This document shows, in pieces, positions 16,701 to 41,258 of a stretch of DNA of 64,000 nt. Source of the DNA: a virus (lineage: Duplodnaviria; Caudoviricetes); the IMG/VR virus record IMGVR_UViG_3300027563_000006, positions 6,539 to 70,538 of that record, one strand, 5' to 3'. Below the pieces are notes generated by a model that ran no database searches, was not told the DNA's origin, and saw nothing but the letters and a program-made list of their open reading frames with translations. The position numbers and the translations under genes were made by a program. Position 1 is the first letter of the stretch; each line of letters opens with the position of its first letter.

Positions 16701-19206
16701 GGGCGTCTTCTCTCGGATCGGGATTAAGCTTCTGATACTTTTGAAAAGATTCACTTTCCGGATTGTTGATCGGTAGAATGACATCGGGTCTAGCCTCGAG
16801 CTCGGGGGCTAATTTTCCCTCGCGGGATTCTGCTTGAACTTCACCCTCAAATTGTTGAACAAGTTTTGACACAGACTCTTCTCCTCGAACCAAGCGGGCA
16901 GCTTGCCCTTCAACCTGCATGGCCTGAAGTCTTGCCAGCTGTTCTTGCATGGCTGGTACTTCATCAACAGGGGCCTGTTTAATCTTAGTTTCAAGAACAT
17001 TAATTTGATCCTGTAATTTTTTTGCGTTAATTTCTGCTGGTTTTTCAACCTCTACTAGATCTTGACTTCTGGCCAGTTTACTTTCCAAAGCAATTTCGTA
17101 ATCGGTTGGCCCTAAATATTTTCTGGCCACTGATTCCAGGTCCTCAGGGGTTCCCGCTTGTTCAAGCTCAGACTCCATTTGATCGAGCTCTTCTTGCTCA
17201 ACCCCAACTTGTTCAGCTCGCAGGAGAAAATCATCTTTAAGATCTTGCTCAAATTCAATGGCCGGGATTCCGTTAAGCCAATTCCCCGAGTCTGTCTTTA
17301 CATTCGTTACCGAATATACTTTTCCGTCGGTCGAGAGTTCTCCAACAATTCGTCCTTGACTCTCGAGCCATTGAATCTTCGAAGCATTCTGCGGAGAATT
17401 AGCCAACTCAATTTTTGTATTTCCAGCTTCAAAAACATTGACTAACTCGTTGAGTGCGGAAAGTTTTTCCTCCTCGGTTTCTGGGGGTCCCTCTTTTAAA
17501 ATAGGAGCAACACCAATCCGACCTTCGGCCTCAGTAAGCTTGGCCGAAAGCATTGATTCAACAGCATTTTGTTTTGAGTTTTCGACCGCCTCGTCTGCTA
17601 CCTTTGCAGTTTCCGGGGAAGTGATACTATCAATTGATGTTCTTACGTTAATCGCATCAAATAATGCTTGGGCTTTAGGGGAAGAGAGCGATTGGCGGAG
17701 TTGAATAATCTGCTCCATCTTTTGTTGATCGTTCAAATTGGGGTCAGTCTTTATACCTGCAACCGTTTGATCAAGCGACTTGGCGAATCGATCGTCGGCC
17801 ATTGCGTAAATTTTTGCGCGCCGCGAAGCAATGACGCTGGAGGTTAGCCCGGGAATGGCCATTCCCAACCCGATACCGCCAGAGACGGCTAGATTTTGCA
17901 GAAAGGGTTCGATCGGATCTTGACCGCGGAGTATAGCTTCGATTTCTTCCGAAGCGGTCTCCCCTAAAGTTGTGCCGACAACTTTACCAGTGCTGCCCAC
18001 CAAGGGGGCTAAAGCGGGCAATTTAGTTGCAAGCGCTTTTGCGGCGACATGATTAGCTAGCGCGACATCAATTGACCCCTCTAGTTTATTTCCTGCGCCC
18101 TCCGCCAAACCAAGAACGGCGGCCTCGCTAAAAACAGAGGACAAACGCTGGGCGATAGAAAGATCTCGGGGGTCCCCTTCAAAAGATTGAGACGCTCCAA
18201 TCGTGGCGTAAGTCGCTCCTCGAGATAAAACAGCGGGCACCTTTATGGATTGACCCGCAATTTGAGCTGCTTTGTTTAGAAACTTGGTAGTGCCAGCCCC
18301 AACTCCTATAAATGAACCGACCGAACCAAGGGCTGCGCCCGCCAAAGTCCCGGTCATATAATCTTTTTGAATGATGCCATTGATTGAATTAGAGAGAGCA
18401 GAACGTCTGGCAACTTGATCTGGATCGTTTTCGTCGACTACAATATCCCCGATGGAAACAAATGGCAGAAACGCGTCGCCAGATTGAATGGCAAAATTTC
18501 GAAGGCTAGCCGAGCCCAATTTTTTAGAGCGATCGCTTTCCAGATCGCGGAGGTAATTTTCCGCCATAGCGAGGTTCATTCCTAACTTGGCTGTGAGTGG
18601 ACCCGCCCCAAAGGCCATGGCTGGGCTTTCGTCTTTAGGAGCGATAGACTTGCCGGCGGCTAATTCATCTTCGTAAAGGGCGCCCAGTTCCAGGGCTTTA
18701 GCTGCCTGTTCGGGGTCTTTGATTGTTCCTATGTAATTTCTAGCGGCTAGGCTTCTTTGAGAGGCTTCGGCCTCTTCGTTGGTCACACCGAGTCCGGATT
18801 GGAGAAACGATCCAATTACTTTCCCGGTGCCACCCAGCGCTAGCTTCGTCATCCCAAGCCAATCTTTTTTGCTTTCCGCCTCTTCAAAAGCCTTATTGTT
18901 TAAATCAAAATAATCTTGTATATTTTTATTTGCGTCCTGCAAAGATTGAGTGTTAAAAGGAGTTTTGCCGTCCCGCAACCTCGTCGCTAAACCCCCCAAG
19001 ATATCTATAGATTTTGGGTCGTCTCGAGTTTCAATAAAAGCACTCGCTTGTCCCAGATTAATTGACGGAGTTTGGGATAGAAATTGAATCTCTTCCTCTT
19101 CTTGAGAGCGGGGCGGGGGCGCAAAAAGTGCGTCTAGTGCTTGTTGATCGTTCTCCGTAAGCTCTGCTAAACCAAGCTCTGTCTCAGAAATGAGGGGATC
19201 CGCCAT
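7705..19206 (-). CDS. giant polyvalent internal virion/ejection protein (3833 aa)
   Basis: Last large gene of podovirus-type tail module after two ejection-like genes; helical N and C termini; internal SF2 helicase, zincin-like and sigma-like segments. Confidence 0.8.
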   Translation of the reverse strand: MADPLISETELGLAELTENDQQALDALFAPPPRSQEEEEIQFLSQTPSINLGQASAFIETRDDPKSIDILGGLATRLRDGKTPFNTQSLQDANKNIQDYFDLNNKAFEEAESKKDWLGMTKLALGGTGKVIGSFLQSGLGVTNEEAEASQRSLAARNYIGTIKDPEQAAKALELGALYEDELAAGKSIAPKDESPAMAFGAGPLTAKLGMNLAMAENYLRDLESDRSKKLGSASLRNFAIQSGDAFLPFVSIGDIVVDENDPDQVARRSALSNSINGIIQKDYMTGTLAGAALGSVGSFIGVGAGTTKFLNKAAQIAGQSIKVPAVLSRGATYATIGASQSFEGDPRDLSIAQRLSSVFSEAAVLGLAEGAGNKLEGSIDVALANHVAAKALATKLPALAPLVGSTGKVVGTTLGETASEEIEAILRGQDPIEPFLQNLAVSGGIGLGMAIPGLTSSVIASRRAKIYAMADDRFAKSLDQTVAGIKTDPNLNDQQKMEQIIQLRQSLSSPKAQALFDAINVRTSIDSITSPETAKVADEAVENSKQNAVESMLSAKLTEAEGRIGVAPILKEGPPETEEEKLSALNELVNVFEAGNTKIELANSPQNASKIQWLESQGRIVGELSTDGKVYSVTNVKTDSGNWLNGIPAIEFEQDLKDDFLLRAEQVGVEQEELDQMESELEQAGTPEDLESVARKYLGPTDYEIALESKLARSQDLVEVEKPAEINAKKLQDQINVLETKIKQAPVDEVPAMQEQLARLQAMQVEGQAARLVRGEESVSKLVQQFEGEVQAESREGKLAPELEARPDVILPINNPESESFQKYQKLNPDPREDAQNVLASVFNLKNPATVELLQSLGAIDENGRDLMTPAETLLAYVERKKSYLQSKSLAGYQKYNISDEVSSATINSFLYELRQGKNNLSLSTIFNSRLRDFIRRAVPRMRAGVGIGAAVSLETPGLRVNAVDAETLAEEQGLNPAVAGAINETLDQIDATEVDNQVVGQSEVPSPAQRQEALAVLAQQIVPSFRQTLTTEAEKLAFDALVSGKQITQQEAAGVQLPVGDIKVIQEVVRNRFISSLEGEYRKNQQAGTLPSRAVSEPEGLVREGNLTAAQIQPAAERFRKLQSDSFFDDEELAGAKSLLSEVQKVRSVKMLRAFENYIESIAQEKLSPEAITELSEAIDNNLKNAVEDDRLSQKQADDYIDKLNKLAEPYLASQTLEEGEAKNKIALTFRSNLLRVSDQILLDSGLNINEKGTYEESKKPEATKPDLKTTDGRREEARKKLSELEAKRAATTKRVPKETVPPERKEVGPAVTSGATGVGGLGAERARGIPIPKSFVESRNQLGKPYSEKVLDPIGSDTVRLLSPEQKQDVAASITTMESSKHKAFYLANGPGTGKTRVLLAAAKYYLNKGFNVFYLTAPDAVTPNWDLNTIGGSIEKDAGLMGVPIAARGGKGESGRGLPIENVPGKVVVSTYTSQYLEKILPLVDAKTVVIFDEQHSGRNLHKAIQEGKSRAWSILMNDISQKAGRVLMASGTPFETPDQLLSLGRLGIFDTESPDALIKRLGFEKQYLRGGKKSYWTLSPGVTETEMQDRLEAYLDGLVKNGILRSRSLKLDGVSVEFQDVPLDSAITKQLEDIKNMYGGTQNTDIASLRKLVSAQKRALEEYKVDAAAKRAIQSIRQGRKPVIYVGFVSETNARGEAVDPTSAAVEAAILRLAPDLRIARMYTGSGQTKEQALAAFNENAADVLIATKEMGGTGIELDDKFGDEPRDMIIMSPPVSAIQAVQLVYRVWRTDSASRPNLIFLESKAEVDQQNIDRMRAKLRLLDATTGAGFEGLKAEETKPAETVAPVKSTVGATPEQVSATDEILKSALGKDYNNNVITFRDAKGQAHNYNVKIDPTFTHSMAVVVGSDNDSDTIVVNPTLLEKGKKTLSPDAYKSYITQALLEETIHMETLRYYRELGLDPVEELTAIGDSLSQASRLAIGRLYYATLGSDITNSDTQGKIKALANDPYFVAMEGIRQLSQLKLTGGVTEQVNSVNANDIARATQRLKDILKSESKSVLARLGVWFDSMATVVKRGLGLAPNAKDRLVMRQSIEDAISTLRKTSKEFVQAGEAPARPIPAPGTSPTAPRAATVFDSYDLRIYRMIENHLEGRTEGVLGVTVADDLFKTVGVEEWLDALDINRRRGVITADERDLFRSATQAVMDGGRASLPAIANKALELAENMEEAGRSLPVAAFVATSAPTEVTSNEQSFEPQPAYQQYRVKIPGNIAVPTTASSEAKATANAVIRLFERQEVVNYNGQRYTSPGPLIAALRDAGYNKFAKVISPAPAVAMEKPIVNSVSLDGGPVLIPVPSPQVAQPVPVGSDLRKIKTNYENVENQLLGFPKEGSGKEGKGFDETKYPYSLQLEISSDNGNTWTSDAIRGMNFFQAVERAKRNWGPNVQLRSVNMVSPLVAPAPEIRESRAVKNIVTQFVDVLPEGKVKDKLLDAWYYQSVPREQQFADAKSYIATNGLQNSLNAFLSGNIKSSLPLQGAIGFELANALGAKAKTDLYAREQLAEVMLLLSRKYGTEPGRTVDLWNALGELSNNPEAMKMYINRQIDSSIRGRLTGFAEEESEISSGLVDSTRRAVDKLTTDKKTKSTIEKIAKLVELNKKQATVAELEAAVAEYVGSEQALADGAEFLGADLAAAPEVEGSDADGIRLNPEQTTALSRMILEIIQRSENPSVTAASEDQIKSLLMLTPALRDAKNQENVRRKLDLYFDAALTNALEIFSAQALGEARARESIQPPTTRGEAVRRVIDAKAKAKDQAPVAIPTEATSRLEALAEASAEALQKQAVRLQQEPKKKDQLEEFAARIRRLIAQRTKEQGGLQPTYTPEPKPTEAEVLRDRIEKYPDVMEFIDNVRDSLKEVYSEEELAGLEPFIDEAFGRPFTVSSLKQAVRSLESIGGPQTNIRGLIRSSKGDIMDFENKLGALLTQNTTLDEAQKKEVTDFLREGLTDLIAKERKLELERIKKRFDAKKERKTRKMRSALDRLIEATNLGVLNDSEVFAQMHSQLGLPELKEEERKKLNKLIEDLPLYPVGMIRNKKISEMYQYVKLVSPQVWGELLVNYQTSNLLAGIGTIGINAWSSTMSNQLNAGILAAVGAAKGIAGDKARAKAYKDAAIALNSAIFAGEKPALNAAANVFFNGDYSNIQDALTQELGGVNIWEAIVKQAEDYRAGKPGAVQPELPVNVFGQEYRIPLDSKFLSSKYGALAPFIFFGRSMAAGDAINKISSRKMYEIAEATNIAIAQGFQTNDEIEAEVARLLNQSPEARKRAEAKAASEAKEFNLTPEQESLRVEEILEQGRPDEEIVKNLTEKAKTFAAQSTFTNNFEGWFGLLADGLTSISAKAWPLRLFVKFLKTGSSLANEVLNFLPVMSTIRLYRGSAAMLKDTKYYRPPPVPGTVEHDLLLGKMALGYIITGTLLAALKDAIGGEDDPYFNIHFKGPADPAQREAFFAAGGKLRAIQIGRFSDGKPQFFSFEGFPVGLSGPLLLSGAITESIRYEKRSVAESIVLGGLTGSALAMYGILDMAALSGIRQLMSLTSPGVGQRDAKGIMTNLSKTVGNVAGGLIPGYATLRDVEQLFNGIAGSPSARPYQENLLSTFAQSIPFASKVGRPDLDFLGGNTKTQVANTVPFLRRLTTTGVDSQSYDDGDRTPQAIHDKLISMFASKRSSLDWDAGPLKDFAMLEMIQDAQAKGDQLTADDFYSLKRELSTDEKYEWMMRAGPIIQEQLSQLIPQLEQMSPGQFREVTRAVVNPIKKEILYQVLAEKNQEGILYPERQ
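13325..13440 (-). other. zincin-like (HExxH-variant EETIH) segment within giant protein
   Basis: IVVNPTLL...YITQALLEETIHMETLRYY; resembles metallopeptidase-like modules of phage polyvalent proteins. Confidence 0.4.
13720..15150 (-). other. strawberry-notch-like SF2 helicase domain within giant protein
   Basis: Walker A FYLANGPGTGKT, Walker B IFDEQH, motif III ASGTP, GGTGIELDD, QLVYRVWR. Confidence 0.7.
15970..16600 (-). other. ECF/sigma70-like domain within giant protein (about aa 870-1080)
   Basis: Region-2-like SDEVSSATINSFL...LSTIFNSRLRDFIRR, VSLETP, PSPAQRQE, region-4-like EAEKLAFDALVSGKQITQQEAAGVQLPVGDIKV. Confidence 0.5.
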
Positions 19207-23541: not shown

Positions 23542-23580
23542 GGTCTGTATAAGTTAACGGTTGTAAGTTCTATGTCAACA

Positions 23581-36986: not shown

Positions 36987-37198
36987 CTATGTTTGCCAAA
37001 AATCTTTGACCAAAAGAATTCGGCAAATGTAGAAATCATAAATGTCATAACCGCTACGACTCCATAACCCATGTGGATATGCTTCTCAACCTTACCGATC
37101 CGCTGGTCATGTTTATCGCGGTCATCGAGCAAGGAATCAAGCTTCTCGTCCATGCGGGCGGTGCGCTCGACAAGGGTAAGTAGATGTTCATTTTCCAT
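36983..37198 (-). CDS. small coiled-coil plus TM protein (holin/XhlA-like)
   Basis: LVERTARMDEKLD...IGKVEK then hydrophobic GYGVVAVMTFMISTFA. Confidence 0.55.
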   Translation of the reverse strand: MENEHLLTLVERTARMDEKLDSLLDDRDKHDQRIGKVEKHIHMGYGVVAVMTFMISTFAEFFWSKIFGKHS

Positions 37199-37412
37199 GG
37201 CTAAATATCCTATCGAGGGTGGGGTATAACCGTGATTTCATCTTATTGGCAGTATAGCTCTCAACACCCAGCAAAGGCAAGAATAGTTCAAAACACATCT
37301 CGAACGATTCCCTCTCAAAACAGGCTTTGGGTCTGGATGGCGGCTTCCCGGCTTCAAGATCTTGGAGGTCGTTCCAAGCTTGCTTGACCACAGCCAGGAT
37401 CAGCTTATCCAC
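37188..37412 (-). CDS. hypothetical protein (74 aa)
   Basis: GTG start just after previous stop. Confidence 0.5.
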   Translation of the reverse strand: MDKLILAVVKQAWNDLQDLEAGKPPSRPKACFERESFEMCFELFLPLLGVESYTANKMKSRLYPTLDRIFSHGK

Positions 37413-37416
37413 GGCC

Positions 37417-37650
37417 TTACGCCATGCCTTGCTCGACAGCCTCAACCATACCCATTTCAGGAGAAGAAGTTTCCTCTTCGACTTCAACTTCAGCTTTTTT
37501 GGCTGGAGAAATCTCGACGCCTTCTACTGATGTTAGGTACATTTTGGGGCCTTTAAAATAACCACTGGCCATGAAGTCGAACGAATCGCCTTCAGCAACA
37601 CCTTCCGGAGGTGTAAAGCCTTTAGGTACGGGGAACGATATGTTTTTCAT
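37417..37650 (-). CDS. acidic 77-aa protein with scaffold-like C-terminal motif
   Basis: Ends MVEAVEQGMA; scaffold ends FVEALERGMK. Confidence 0.7.
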   Translation of the reverse strand: MKNISFPVPKGFTPPEGVAEGDSFDFMASGYFKGPKMYLTSVEGVEISPAKKAEVEVEEETSSPEMGMVEAVEQGMA

Positions 37651-37680
37651 ATTAAATGTCTTTCTTTAGAAAATAGTGTG

Positions 37681-37711
37681 ATCCCCCCAAGGGATAGAAC
37701 CTTGGGGGGAT
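37681..37711. terminator. perfect 12-bp inverted repeat after capsid/decoration genes
   Basis: atccccccaagg-N7-ccttggggggat. Confidence 0.65.
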
Positions 37712-37722
37712 CGATTAATTAT

Positions 37723-38046: not shown

Positions 38047-39462
38047 TTAGCTAACGTAGTCAAGGCTGATGGCAGGCCGTGTGTGCAGGATGACATAGCC
38101 ATACTGCGGGAACACGGGCCGAGCGCCACTGGCCACAACACCGCGGAAGTATCCGACATTGCCGTCCGGATTGAACTGCCGATCAAGGATGTTGACCCAC
38201 TTGAACTCACCGCGGTAATTCTGAGCGTTAAAGCCCATCTTGTTACCAACGGCGATCGGGCTAGGAACCACGGAGCGCATAACATCTTGGTGGAAGATGT
38301 AGCTAACTTCGTAGGAAGCCGTCTCGTAAGCAGGGTTAATGTTGTAAGCCGTACCCTTGGTCGTGGTCTCCCTGCGGAAGGGGAACACGCGGATGAGCTT
38401 GTCATTGGTCGTATCAAACACGTTGAAGCGTGGAGGATACGGGTCGATGGAGTGGTAGAAACCACCGTAAGAACGCTCGATGCCGAGAGGCGTGAGCAAT
38501 TCATTCGGTTTGGCATACCGGTAATCCTGGCGAATGTCGGCATTCAACCGGATCAGGTTTTCGCTGGTTTCGGCACCGCAGATGAGCATGAACACAGGGG
38601 CTCCGTTTTCACGGCCCATGGCTTGCGTGCCCGCGCCGTCGCGAATCAGCTTCATGTACAACCGTTTCAGGATACCTTGTGTCAGCTGGCTCTGAGGCAG
38701 AGCGTTAGCGGCAAACGCGCCGGAGGCGGCGGTTCCAGTTCCGGCCGTAACCGCACTGTAAACACCAACCAAGTCAGTCACGCTGATGCTGAAACCATTC
38801 GACCCAGTCGAGTTGACGGGGAGAATACCAATCGTGGAAGCGCTGGGGATAACGAGGTTACCTTCAGCCGCAACCTGCTCGGTGTACAACTGCCGATAAC
38901 GGTCCTGCCAAACCAAGGAGGTCGACTCAGAGAGGACATCCATGATGTTGGAGAGCTGTTCTTTGCGTTTAACGGCAAAGCGCAAATCTTCCAGGGCGAT
39001 ATCAGGGGAATCAACCGAGGCCCACTTCAAGCTGTACTGACGGAGCTTTTGTCCGAAAGTAACGCCAGTGAGGGGGATGGGGAGTGCGTTTCCAGCCGTT
39101 GACGAGGGTGAGCTCGAAGACACGGGGGGTTGGCTTCCACCCGAGATGGTCTGGGTGTAAGGATTGAACCCGGTGTAGGTCTGATCAATCGGATTCGATC
39201 CGAGGGTACGCCATCCGAATCCAGCGTCTCCGGTGATATCACCAGCGGTATAACCGTTGGCGGTAGAGGCAGCGATGCTGCTGGAGGGGTAGAAACGTTC
39301 GAACGTGACCGAACTGATCACATCGCCCATCTCTTCGGGGAATTGTTCCTGTTTAGTGAGTTTGAGCCAGGCGGAAGTATCAACGGTCCGGCGATAAATC
39401 TCCGGTCCGATACGCCCAGCTTCTTTAACCAGCAACTGCTGGATTTCATAAGTCGTAGCCAT
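38047..39462 (-). CDS. major capsid protein (about 471 aa)
   Basis: After scaffold; strongly biased codon use; SD gaaagga; WLKLTKQEQFPEEMG and FKWVNI.D...NPDGNVGYF motifs; start at MATTYE. Confidence 0.8.
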   Translation of the reverse strand: MATTYEIQQLLVKEAGRIGPEIYRRTVDTSAWLKLTKQEQFPEEMGDVISSVTFERFYPSSSIAASTANGYTAGDITGDAGFGWRTLGSNPIDQTYTGFNPYTQTISGGSQPPVSSSSPSSTAGNALPIPLTGVTFGQKLRQYSLKWASVDSPDIALEDLRFAVKRKEQLSNIMDVLSESTSLVWQDRYRQLYTEQVAAEGNLVIPSASTIGILPVNSTGSNGFSISVTDLVGVYSAVTAGTGTAASGAFAANALPQSQLTQGILKRLYMKLIRDGAGTQAMGRENGAPVFMLICGAETSENLIRLNADIRQDYRYAKPNELLTPLGIERSYGGFYHSIDPYPPRFNVFDTTNDKLIRVFPFRRETTTKGTAYNINPAYETASYEVSYIFHQDVMRSVVPSPIAVGNKMGFNAQNYRGEFKWVNILDRQFNPDGNVGYFRGVVASGARPVFPQYGYVILHTRPAISLDYVS

Positions 39463-39499
39463 ATTAGTATTATTTCCTTTCAACCTTCCCCGCTCGCGC

Positions 39500-39683
39500 A
39501 AAGGGTAGGTTATGATTTATAATGATTCTGCCAGTCCCTATCGGGGCTATCCAGTTTCACTATATCTTCAAAACTTTTCCCTGGCGGCATCCCAGAGCTT
39601 TTAATGCCCGAATTCTGCTAGACCATCTCAATCTTTATAGGTCTTATTCAGTAAGGATCTCAATCTTTATACCTGCACTGAAC
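39500..39683 (-). ncRNA. structured 5' leader of capsid gene with two identical-loop hairpins
   Basis: TATAAAGATTGAGAT at 39657-39671 and 39625-39639, each closed by a different stem; further stems downstream. Confidence 0.6.
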
Positions 39684-39689
39684 TAGTTA

Positions 39690-39717
39690 AAAGTATCAAC
39701 CGGATGGAACGTGTCAA
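39690..39717 (-). promoter_or_regulatory. capsid-operon promoter
   Basis: TTGACA-N16-TACTTT with TG extension. Confidence 0.6.
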
Positions 39718-39731
39718 TAGCTTTAACAAAT

Positions 39732-40952
39732 TTATTTCATTCCTCGTTCAAGGGCTTCAACAAAGCTGACATCAGCCGGAACTTCCACTCCGCCACCTTT
39801 CGCTCCCCCAGATGAAGGAATCGTAGATCGAAGCTCTTTAGTGAGCTTCTCCAGCTCAGAAATGCGAGTCTGGGTCTTGGCCACATAATCTTGGAATACG
39901 TTCATAACCAGGGGCATAGCTGCCGCATTAAAGGTCAACTTGGCTTTAGCCCGGGGGTCAAGCTCAGTGTTCTCAATCTGCATGGCCTGTTGTTGAATAT
40001 TGTTTAGAGCGCTATTCCAAGTTTCATTCCCCTCGATAGGACGCAACAGGGCATTTTCTTTTTGGAGGTTTTGCCACTCAGAATCATAAGCAGTTTTAAC
40101 CTCTGTCTCCATTCTTTTCTGAAAAGCTGTTGCCTCTTTCTGCTCTTCGGCTTGAATCATCTGCAATACGGTATTAACATCTTTAGTTAGAACTTCTCGT
40201 CTTTCAAATACTTTTTGAAGTTCCTCTGCCTTGCTTCGAATGGCCAAGGAATCTACTGGATCGAATGCACTTGTAGCTTCTTTTAGCAGGGCGCGACGTT
40301 TGGCGGGATCTGGCTCAACCATTGCGGCGTAGATATTCCGGGGATCAACTCCCTCGTAAAGCTTGCTGATATCGGAAACCTCTTTCTGAATGCCGTTCAG
40401 GGGCTCAGTAACTGCCTGCTTGTATTCCTTGGTGGATTCCAGCCTGGAGAACTTCAACTCATTCTCATACTCATCTCGCTCCTGTTTGAGAGTGTTTAAC
40501 TGATTCTGCAAGTCAATCTGCTCCACCGAATTAGTCGGGGCATCAGAAACTTTTTCTTCCATTTCTTTTAATTTTGTGCGGGCTTCGCGCAAATCTTTGG
40601 TCAGGCGGGCCCAAGCTGTCTGAGCCTCTGGCTTAAGATTTTCTGGAGCTTTAATATCCAATTCATCGGAAACAACCTCTGTCTTTGTGACTTCTTCCTG
40701 TCCAGTCATCCGCCGAGTCAAAATATCCAAAGGATTGGTTGTGGAGGAAGCGTCGGTCTTGGCCACCTCAACGGGTTTCGCGATCTCAGCTGGGGCCGTT
40801 ACAGCGGTTGCAACAGGAGCTTCTGCTACGAGAGCCTCTGCTACGGGAGCTTTATCTAGAGCTTCAAATCCGGCGTCAAATGCGTCAGCAAAATTAATAT
40901 TATTCGATTCCGTTGCGGTTGCTGTGGGTTCTGCGGTCGCTGTTTCACTCAT
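39732..40952 (-). CDS. capsid scaffolding protein
   Basis: Acidic Ala/Pro-rich N-terminus, long coiled coils, between portal and MCP. Confidence 0.75.
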   Translation of the reverse strand: MSETATAEPTATATESNNINFADAFDAGFEALDKAPVAEALVAEAPVATAVTAPAEIAKPVEVAKTDASSTTNPLDILTRRMTGQEEVTKTEVVSDELDIKAPENLKPEAQTAWARLTKDLREARTKLKEMEEKVSDAPTNSVEQIDLQNQLNTLKQERDEYENELKFSRLESTKEYKQAVTEPLNGIQKEVSDISKLYEGVDPRNIYAAMVEPDPAKRRALLKEATSAFDPVDSLAIRSKAEELQKVFERREVLTKDVNTVLQMIQAEEQKEATAFQKRMETEVKTAYDSEWQNLQKENALLRPIEGNETWNSALNNIQQQAMQIENTELDPRAKAKLTFNAAAMPLVMNVFQDYVAKTQTRISELEKLTKELRSTIPSSGGAKGGGVEVPADVSFVEALERGMK

Positions 40953-40967
40953 AGTTTATTTTCCTTA

Positions 40968-41258
40968 TTACTGATTTGTTTCTTCTATTTTGGTTTCCCA
41001 AGGTTCTGGCAAGTTTGAAGGCTCACCTGGTTCTTCTGACAGTGTTGACAGTACACGTATTGCCTCAAAGTAACCTTCTCTTCGAGCATTTAGAGTCGCG
41101 TTCCAATCAATAAAATCGACATTTGGGGGAGGAAGAGTTGCGGATGGGATGCCTAAATTTAATAGGACTTGTATCAAAGATTCACCGGCTTCTGATTTGC
41201 AGAAGACTTTCCAAGCGTTCTTGAGATCGGCTCGTTTATTCCAATCGTTTAACGTCAT
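40968..41258 (-). CDS. small head-module protein (96 aa)
   Basis: Between portal and scaffold; ARREGY motif reminiscent of Bbp19-like proteins. Confidence 0.6.
   Translation of the reverse strand: MTLNDWNKRADLKNAWKVFCKSEAGESLIQVLLNLGIPSATLPPPNVDFIDWNATLNARREGYFEAIRVLSTLSEEPGEPSNLPEPWETKIEETNQ

Follow-up and report, generated by a model that had tools for sequence, protein, structure and literature searches.

The DNA analyzed here, a stretch of 64,000 nt to which we refer as the window, belongs to an uncultured phage whose genes include those for a large terminase, a family A DNA polymerase, a helicase, and a 3,833-aa protein, as well as a block of virion genes on the minus strand. Feature coordinates are window positions and refer to the minus strand. 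In the direction of transcription, part of the virion block reads 41255–43564 (portal-sized, 769 aa), 40968–41258 (96 aa), 39732–40952 (406 aa), and 38047–39462, the gene for the major capsid protein (471 aa, with its ATG at 39462). The 406-aa product is scaffold-like by position, and the 269-nt gap between its gene and the capsid gene is taken up by a promoter and a structured leader.

Neither Pfam nor PHROGs returned a match for the capsid protein, and profile-based sequence searching of the PDB turned up nothing beyond spurious hits to designed ankyrins, which we discarded. Its assignment comes from structure prediction. An AlphaFold2 model based on an alignment of 70 sequences, taken from a profile search that had found 690 cluster representatives, reached a pLDDT of 80 (an earlier model from 19 sequences: pLDDT 40). 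Foldseek comparison of this model to the PDB produced 176 matches at E ≤ 0.001, all of the listed ones being phage capsid or head structures. The best were the capsids of N4, DEV, Moo19, and B2 (top match N4, 9e99_A; E 4.9e-11), followed by other HK97-fold capsids, and a protein-atlas feature search pointed to the N4-gp56 capsid family. The modeled fold thus identifies the protein as an HK97-fold major capsid protein, with that of N4 as the closest.

The head module of N4 offers a direct comparison. The order and sizes of gp59-gp58-gp57-gp56 (portal of ~765 aa, ~100 aa, ~405 aa, and capsid) are matched in the window, the 406-aa gene corresponding to gp57 in position and size without sequence similarity. 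For the three proteins compared, there was no detectable sequence similarity to the N4 counterparts, leaving the capsid fold as the only link. Unlike in the window, merely 11 nt separate gp57 from the capsid gene in N4, so that there is neither promoter nor leader. Promoter and leader are hence a trait of the present uncultured clade rather than of N4-like phages generally. DNA and protein searches of cultured-phage records returned no match.

Relatives of the locus were collected from IMG/VR and metagenome contigs using the capsid protein and a DNA pattern of the leader core described below as queries. Several of the metagenome contigs bear identifiers that we take to denote lake samples. Two groups of leaders recur throughout this analysis: family A, with 33 distinct full-length leaders (32 of them aligned) that contain twin hairpins and precede capsid genes whose products are 73–97% identical to the window's, and its sister family B, with 27 distinct sequences and capsids of 40–46% identity.

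Transcription of the capsid gene is predicted to start from a promoter within the gap. Its −35 hexamer, TTGACA (39712–39717), can be read directly from the sequence, lies mostly within GGTATTGACA, begins 14 nt past the TAA stop (39734–39732) of the upstream 406-aa gene, and is invariant in 59/59 relatives from families A and B. A 16-nt spacer separates it from an extended −10 element, TG-a-TACTTT (39690–39698), in which TG (39698–39697) and TACTTT (39695–39690) flank a single base; a TAnnnT is found at this constant distance in all relatives. In family B, the spacer sequence varies, and across the 59 sequences hexamers and spacing are conserved. A simple promoter scan did not list the site because TACTTT agrees with TATAAT at just 3/6 positions, and it is the conservation across all relatives that supports the assignment. 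We therefore read it as a host-type, sigma-70-like promoter dedicated to the capsid gene. The predicted start, G39683, is the seventh base past the −10 element and the first base of hairpin 1. The earlier note on this DNA had proposed precisely this arrangement—TTGACA-N16-TACTTT and a start near 39683, at the base of a hairpin—together with a leader of about 220 nt. Sequence and relatives bear out the promoter, and from the predicted start the untranslated leader would span 221 nt, from 39683 to 39463.

Elsewhere in the window, TTGACA-N15–18-TAnnnT occurs at one further site, at 23578, and other promoter-like sites of the minus strand (43564, 36986, 31227) take the form TTGAC(A/T)-N16/17-CAnAnT rather than ending in TAnnnT. 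Two further promoter readings of the leader itself were rejected. A sigma-70 promoter assembled from TTGAGA of loop 1 and TATAAA of loop 2 (18-nt spacer) would have a −10 element without its critical final T and is likewise unlisted by the promoter scan. A T4-type late promoter (TATAAATA), as which TATAAAGA might be read, is not borne out by the distribution of the motif: the 8 instances of TATAAA[GT]A in the window show no tendency to precede virion genes.

The leader opens with two hairpins. Hairpin 1 (P1; 39646–39683) comprises 11 bp and one bulged C (−9.2 kcal/mol, z −2.7); hairpin 2 (P2; 39620–39644), which begins one base past it, comprises 5 bp (−4.7 kcal/mol, z −1.6). Folded together, the pair reaches −14.9 kcal/mol (z −2.4), and single-sequence folding predicts both hairpins, be it from the whole intergenic RNA or from pieces thereof. 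As the earlier note had reported, they present the same 15-nt loop: loop 1 (39657–39671) and loop 2 (39625–39639) both read exactly TATAAAGATTGAGAT. These two loops hold the only exact copies of the sequence, both in the window and in the entire single-contig genome of 70,538 bp; the nearest other site has 2 mismatches and falls outside any hairpin. Also in line with that note, the closing stems differ and are flipped (GG..CC versus CC..GG), with closing pairs of A-U/G-C/G-C in hairpin 1 and A-U/C-G/C-G in hairpin 2. In both hairpins, all three closing pairs are invariant or nearly so among 32 family A sequences (the A-U pair of hairpin 2 in 31/32). Such a flip would prevent mispairing between two units with identical loops.

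The expectation that the loops would be conserved and the stems variable held as well. Between 12 and 13 of the 15 loop positions are invariant across family A relatives (13/15 in loop 1), the consensus being TATAAAGAYTGAGAY for loop 1 and TATAAARATTGARAY for loop 2. Both stems show compensatory changes in the 32 sequences, at 5/11 pairs in P1 (95.7% of cells paired) and at 3/5 pairs in P2 (98.1% paired). Hairpin 2 is only marginally stable by itself, yet conserved with covariation, as expected if something stabilizes it. P1 is rich in G-U pairs, and many intermediate states of the covarying pairs are G-U, which points to RNA of the capsid sense strand and not to duplex DNA.

All loop substitutions in relatives are transitions, namely U/C at loop positions 9 and 15 and G/A at positions 7 and 13. 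Changes of this kind are tolerable opposite G or U, and the loops are long and single-stranded, so one may ask whether they pair with another RNA, either host rRNA (in the manner of the T7 gene 10 epsilon-like enhancer) or a small RNA of host or phage. Transitions, however, are the commonest mutations anyway. The best complement within the phage is an 11-nt run, perfectly matching AAAGATTGAGA of the loops, in the minus-strand mRNA of the giant protein (18179–18193 on the plus strand of the window). It is probably a coincidence, as ~0.15 such runs are expected by chance. We consider pairing with another RNA improbable. Covarying partners of the variable loop positions were also sought within the leader, with nothing convincing found; the signals obtained are phylogenetically confounded, one example being column 63 with column 147, the latter of which is already paired to column 156. 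Inspection of the leader by eye for motifs of the IHF, CsrA, Hfq, and TRAP type revealed none that fits.

Downstream of the twin hairpins lies a shared core, CGGGCAUUAAAAGCUCUGGGAUGCCGCCAGGG (39579–39610), which is invariant in family A. The 45-nt stretch around CGGGCAUUAAAAGCUCUGGGAUGCCGCCAGGGAA likewise never changes in family A and hardly does so in family B. The core contains a hairpin, S2 (CUCUGG/CCAGGG, 7-nt loop GAUGCCG), of which 3 pairs have changed in a compensatory manner in family B. In addition, an upstream GGCA(U) could pair with (A)UGCC in the S2 loop to form a stem, S1. Its GGCA/UGCC is invariant in 59/59 sequences, and the 1-nt connector looks tight. S1 and S2 may form a pseudoknot. 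A small open reading frame starting from the AUG in the core loop was dismissed, its frame being shifted by indels among the relatives.

The core is followed by a long hairpin, P4 (39509–39574), with 22 pairs interrupted by internal loops and a CCCC-GAUA-GGG tip (−18.4 kcal/mol, z −3.7). It shows compensatory changes at 10 pairs in the 32 family A sequences, and its counterpart in family B covaries as well. A short GC-rich hairpin, P5 (39485–39508), adjoins the ribosome binding site. It is confined to family A and displays one-sided (G-U) changes only; the case for it as a conserved helix is weak. The Shine-Dalgarno sequence GAAAGGA (39475–39481), 12 nt 5′ of the capsid ATG, is invariant in families A and B and unpaired in the consensus folds. 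Three further stems had been suggested in this part of the leader, and they fared differently. The ccc-gata-ggg stem stands, as the tip of the covarying P4. The gccag/ctggc stem does not, since the comparative data pair its halves elsewhere: CCAGGG with CTCTGG, which covaries in family B, and CTGGCAG within P4. The ggcat/atgcc stem is possible, both of its sides being invariant across relatives. Covariation thus supports a leader that would fold, from 5′ to 3′, into hairpin 1, hairpin 2, the core hairpin, and the long hairpin, with the Shine-Dalgarno sequence left free.

Over the full family A structure (alignment A4, 32 distinct sequences), the paired fraction of cells is 97.5%, and compensatory double changes occur at 18 pairs. 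None of 500 shuffles reached the observed values, and sliding the 3′ partners by 1–3 columns reduced pairing to 38–46%. Family B yielded 12 compensatory pairs (0/500 shuffles). The compensatory pairs hence exceed both shuffled and slid controls, as is expected of a conserved structured RNA. In relatives, the leader is 78–96% identical to the window's versus 53–66% at synonymous third positions of the capsid gene, placing the non-coding leader under stronger constraint than the capsid gene's silent sites. The comparison of homologous capsid leaders called for in the earlier note thus produced both covariation and loop conservation, rather than the lack of them that it had named as speaking against its reading. 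From these comparisons, the leader is almost certainly a real, selected, structured RNA.

The same data bear on two simpler accounts of the repeated 15-mer. One would see it as a chance repeat or a recent local duplication without function. All that recommends this is that duplications happen; the repeat is kept in more than 32 distinct sequences, accompanied by covarying stems and by capsids that differ by up to 27%, and this conservation across relatives refutes the idea, to which we assign practically no probability. The other account would place the function on duplex DNA, with a phage regulator of the capsid promoter binding 15-bp direct repeats and the hairpins being incidental. The repeats are 32 bp apart (three helical turns), at +13 to +59, and a near-consensus promoter would otherwise fire early. 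Against such an operator, the compensatory and G-U changes in both stems speak for selection on a single-stranded fold of the sense strand, the flipped closing pairs would be meaningless for a DNA site, and the motif is absent from all other promoters in the genome. We hold a DNA-level operator to be very unlikely.

The element accompanies the capsid gene wherever it occurs. A search with the twin-loop pattern found 29 IMG/VR contigs, with one occurrence each, all at this locus. True matches to the core pattern that had enough flanking sequence always lay directly 5′ of a capsid homologue, whatever the upstream gene, and the presence of the element in front of the capsid gene even without a scaffold-like neighbor argues that it belongs to the capsid gene. 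The core pattern also hit bacterial genomes, 17 times, but these are chance matches within coding regions such as ABC-transporter-like genes. A covariance model of twin hairpins plus core scored 142 bits at the site under study and 12.7 bits at the next best site in the window. It matches family B through the core only and found no match in more distant capsid clades or in N4.

Family B retains the promoter, the core, the long hairpin, and the ribosome binding site. Its 5′ module differs: the twin hairpins are absent, and in their place is a covarying pseudoknot, with, for instance, pair 28–44 being GC in 17 sequences and UA in 10. Family B leaders (L018, L020–L031, L124, L125, and metagenome loci; alignment A6) would consequently carry pseudoknot modules of one topology twice in a row: a 5′ module that covaries in both stems and, 3′ of it, the shared core. 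That a module of this topology covaries in both stems makes the core pseudoknot more believable. At 32–42% capsid identity (L126–L150), gaps of ~250 nt harbor at least three further conserved leader families. In the family C leader, a 5′ hairpin bears a conserved 12-nt loop, and RNAalifold counted 19 compensatory pairs over seven sequences; the leader of family D is GC-rich, and that of family E very AT-rich. A long structured capsid leader therefore seems to be a clade-wide habit, with modules replaced over time.

Farther downstream lies a 3′ hairpin (37680–37712), GC-rich, with 13 bp and a 7-nt loop, UUCUAUC, ~10 nt past a 100-aa gene that lies 3′ of the capsid gene. All of the 23 relatives checked, from families A and B, have kept this hairpin, its stems covarying, and it probably represents the end of a discrete capsid transcription unit of ~2 kb. 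As a side observation, its loop is T-loop-like and its tail is not a clean U-run; a 12–13 bp stem with a 7-nt loop is also the size of a tRNA acceptor/T-arm minihelix.

Two stem-loops right behind a promoter that heads ~30 kb of same-strand virion genes, with a strong hairpin 2 kb downstream, call to mind processive antitermination, whereby the nascent hairpins would act on RNA polymerase and allow read-through into the late operon. HK022 put and lambda nut boxB (together with N protein) are antitermination RNAs of this kind, and they too are paired stem-loops in nascent RNA near a phage promoter, with a sequence-specific upper part. The resemblance does not extend to size and sequence: the loops here have 15 nt, neither put nor nut shows any similarity, and scans against Rfam came back empty. 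Several genes beyond the 3′ hairpin are themselves equipped with promoter-like sites, and the sister family lacks the twin hairpins yet keeps the 3′ hairpin. Antitermination is accordingly an account in which we place little belief.

Other classes of regulatory RNA were compared as well. The hallmarks of a riboswitch or attenuator were not found: there is no terminator-like site in 38900–40300, the Shine-Dalgarno sequence is free in the folds, and no known aptamer matches. CsrB/RsmZ with their GGA loops and the coat-protein hairpins of MS2 and PP7 likewise present one sequence on several hairpins with unrelated stems; the present leader, in contrast, has no GGA motif, much longer loops, and two copies only, which act in cis on one mRNA. 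A further parallel is the stem-loop of the Escherichia coli ompA leader type. Such 5′-terminal hairpins stabilize bacterial and phage mRNAs, and a simple stabilizer needs no invariant loops. Here too, a stem-loop is predicted within one base of the start of a highly expressed mRNA; the leader, though, is far larger and multi-domain, with invariant loops and linkers.

A search of Rfam 15 gave no match at the gathering score in the whole window, the best sub-threshold hit in 39300–39900 being Gut-1 (18 bits versus a cut-off of 50); 8 related loci of families B–E yielded no match either. The Rfam search that the earlier note had proposed for the leader thus matched it to no family. The suggestion of a new cis-regulatory noncoding RNA class in the capsid leader finds good support in this absence from Rfam, in the covarying stems and conserved loops, in the identity of the downstream gene as that for a major capsid protein, and in the constant association with that gene. 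Judged by its sequence, the leader would be a phage cis-acting leader RNA, absent from Rfam 15, whose unusual anatomy is solid.

A 2023 survey of IMG/VR predicted 8,495 candidate structured RNAs, five of which lie 5′ of a T7-type capsid gene (PMC10690425). Like these candidates and like Rfam GP20-a/b, the present leader is a covarying RNA just 5′ of structural genes on uncultured phage contigs; the capsid gene that it precedes encodes a protein N4-like in fold and not T7-like. The leader pseudoknot of T4 gene 32 and other T4 translational operators (cited in PMC10690425) share with it a pseudoknot-like leader before a dosage-sensitive phage gene, for which autoregulation is an obvious hypothesis; there is no sequence similarity, and a different gene, that for the capsid, is preceded here. 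In T4, such operators lie beside or across the ribosome binding site. In the window, the loops (39671–39625) lie 160–200 nt upstream of a Shine-Dalgarno sequence (39481–39475) that is unpaired, and the arrangement is thus unlike a classical translational operator, be it of the T4 gp32/RegA or the RNA-phage coat type.

How might such a leader work? In bacteria, mRNA decay often depends on the 5′ end, through RNase E/RppH or RNase J. If transcription starts where predicted, at the base of hairpin 1, the 5′ end would be buried in a helix, and without a free 5′ tail the mRNA for the phage's most abundant protein would, by this rule, be longer-lived. In family B, the predicted start likewise sits at the foot of a closing stem. 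Beyond stabilization, the tandem display of UAUAAAGAUUGAGAU would provide a putative landing site for a factor that acts in trans. The likeliest such factor would be a phage or host protein, either dimeric or with two binding sites, and it could set the amount or timing of capsid protein. The invariant core, common to the sister family, may serve as a second recognition element. We favor such a site over mere stabilization because stabilizers need no invariant 15-nt loops, because hairpin 2 is weak, and because the closing pairs are flipped. That the two hairpins serve as a tandem site for a trans-acting factor, by which the stability or the translation of the capsid mRNA would be adjusted, has in our estimation somewhat less than an even chance.

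The most serious competitor is a self-contained fold, in which the loops contact the core and P4, and the leader protects against 5′ nucleases, promotes ribosome loading, or both, with no trans factor involved. A conserved loop sequence is equally compatible with intramolecular tertiary contacts, just as transitions are compatible with pairing to other RNA. The 5′ end is predicted within a helix in both families, a covarying pseudoknot occupies the same place in family B, a strong promoter and a 3′ hairpin are typical of a stable, abundant mRNA, and the other long structured leaders of distant capsid clades suggest a generic need rather than one ligand. Difficulties for this explanation are the lack of a convincing covarying partner for the variable loop positions, the fact that a stabilizer requires no two identical loops, and the rarity with which simple stabilizers keep 15-nt loops and a 45-nt linker invariant. 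We regard a purely self-contained fold as unlikely, if well worth keeping in mind.

Should the twin loops indeed be bound by a trans-acting factor, the absence of the loops from family B implies a binder that is lineage-specific or dispensable. The earlier note had named scaffold or capsid autoregulation as an example. Since family B has the same capsid and, in some loci, scaffold-like genes, but no loops, a deeply conserved site of scaffold or capsid autoregulation is disfavored, and either protein as the loop-binding partner is possible but unsupported. When neighboring genes were compared between families A and B, one small open reading frame stood out, at 37188–37487 (99 aa, TTG start, very basic N-terminus). 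It overlaps the end of a 77-aa gene, is present in 14/14 family A loci checked and was undetected in 9 family B loci; it has no recognizable domain. From this distribution, its product might be a lineage-specific partner of the twin loops, a candidate that we mention as a weak lead.

Taken as a whole, the twin-loop hairpins and the pseudoknot-like core could represent an undescribed class of phage regulatory RNA, that is, a modular leader that would govern the amount or timing of capsid synthesis by recruiting a specific phage or host protein or the ribosome, or by blocking a 5′ exonuclease, and whose 5′ modules would have been swapped in evolution. This fuller proposal is a tentative one, and we put its likelihood well short of even.

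To our knowledge, hardly any work has addressed how tailed DNA phages control capsid synthesis after transcription. The present locus adds a covariation-supported RNA of ~220 nt that is tied to the capsid gene throughout a clade of abundant, uncultured freshwater phages, and that combines two identical 15-nt loops with an invariant 45-nt core and with 5′ modules interchangeable between lineages. As a compact natural RNA with twin loops and pseudoknots, it would be suited to structural study. Even if it were only a stabilizer, it would still be a clean new case of a modular, mRNA-protecting leader, and it provides a testable handle on the dose and timing of the phage's most abundant protein.
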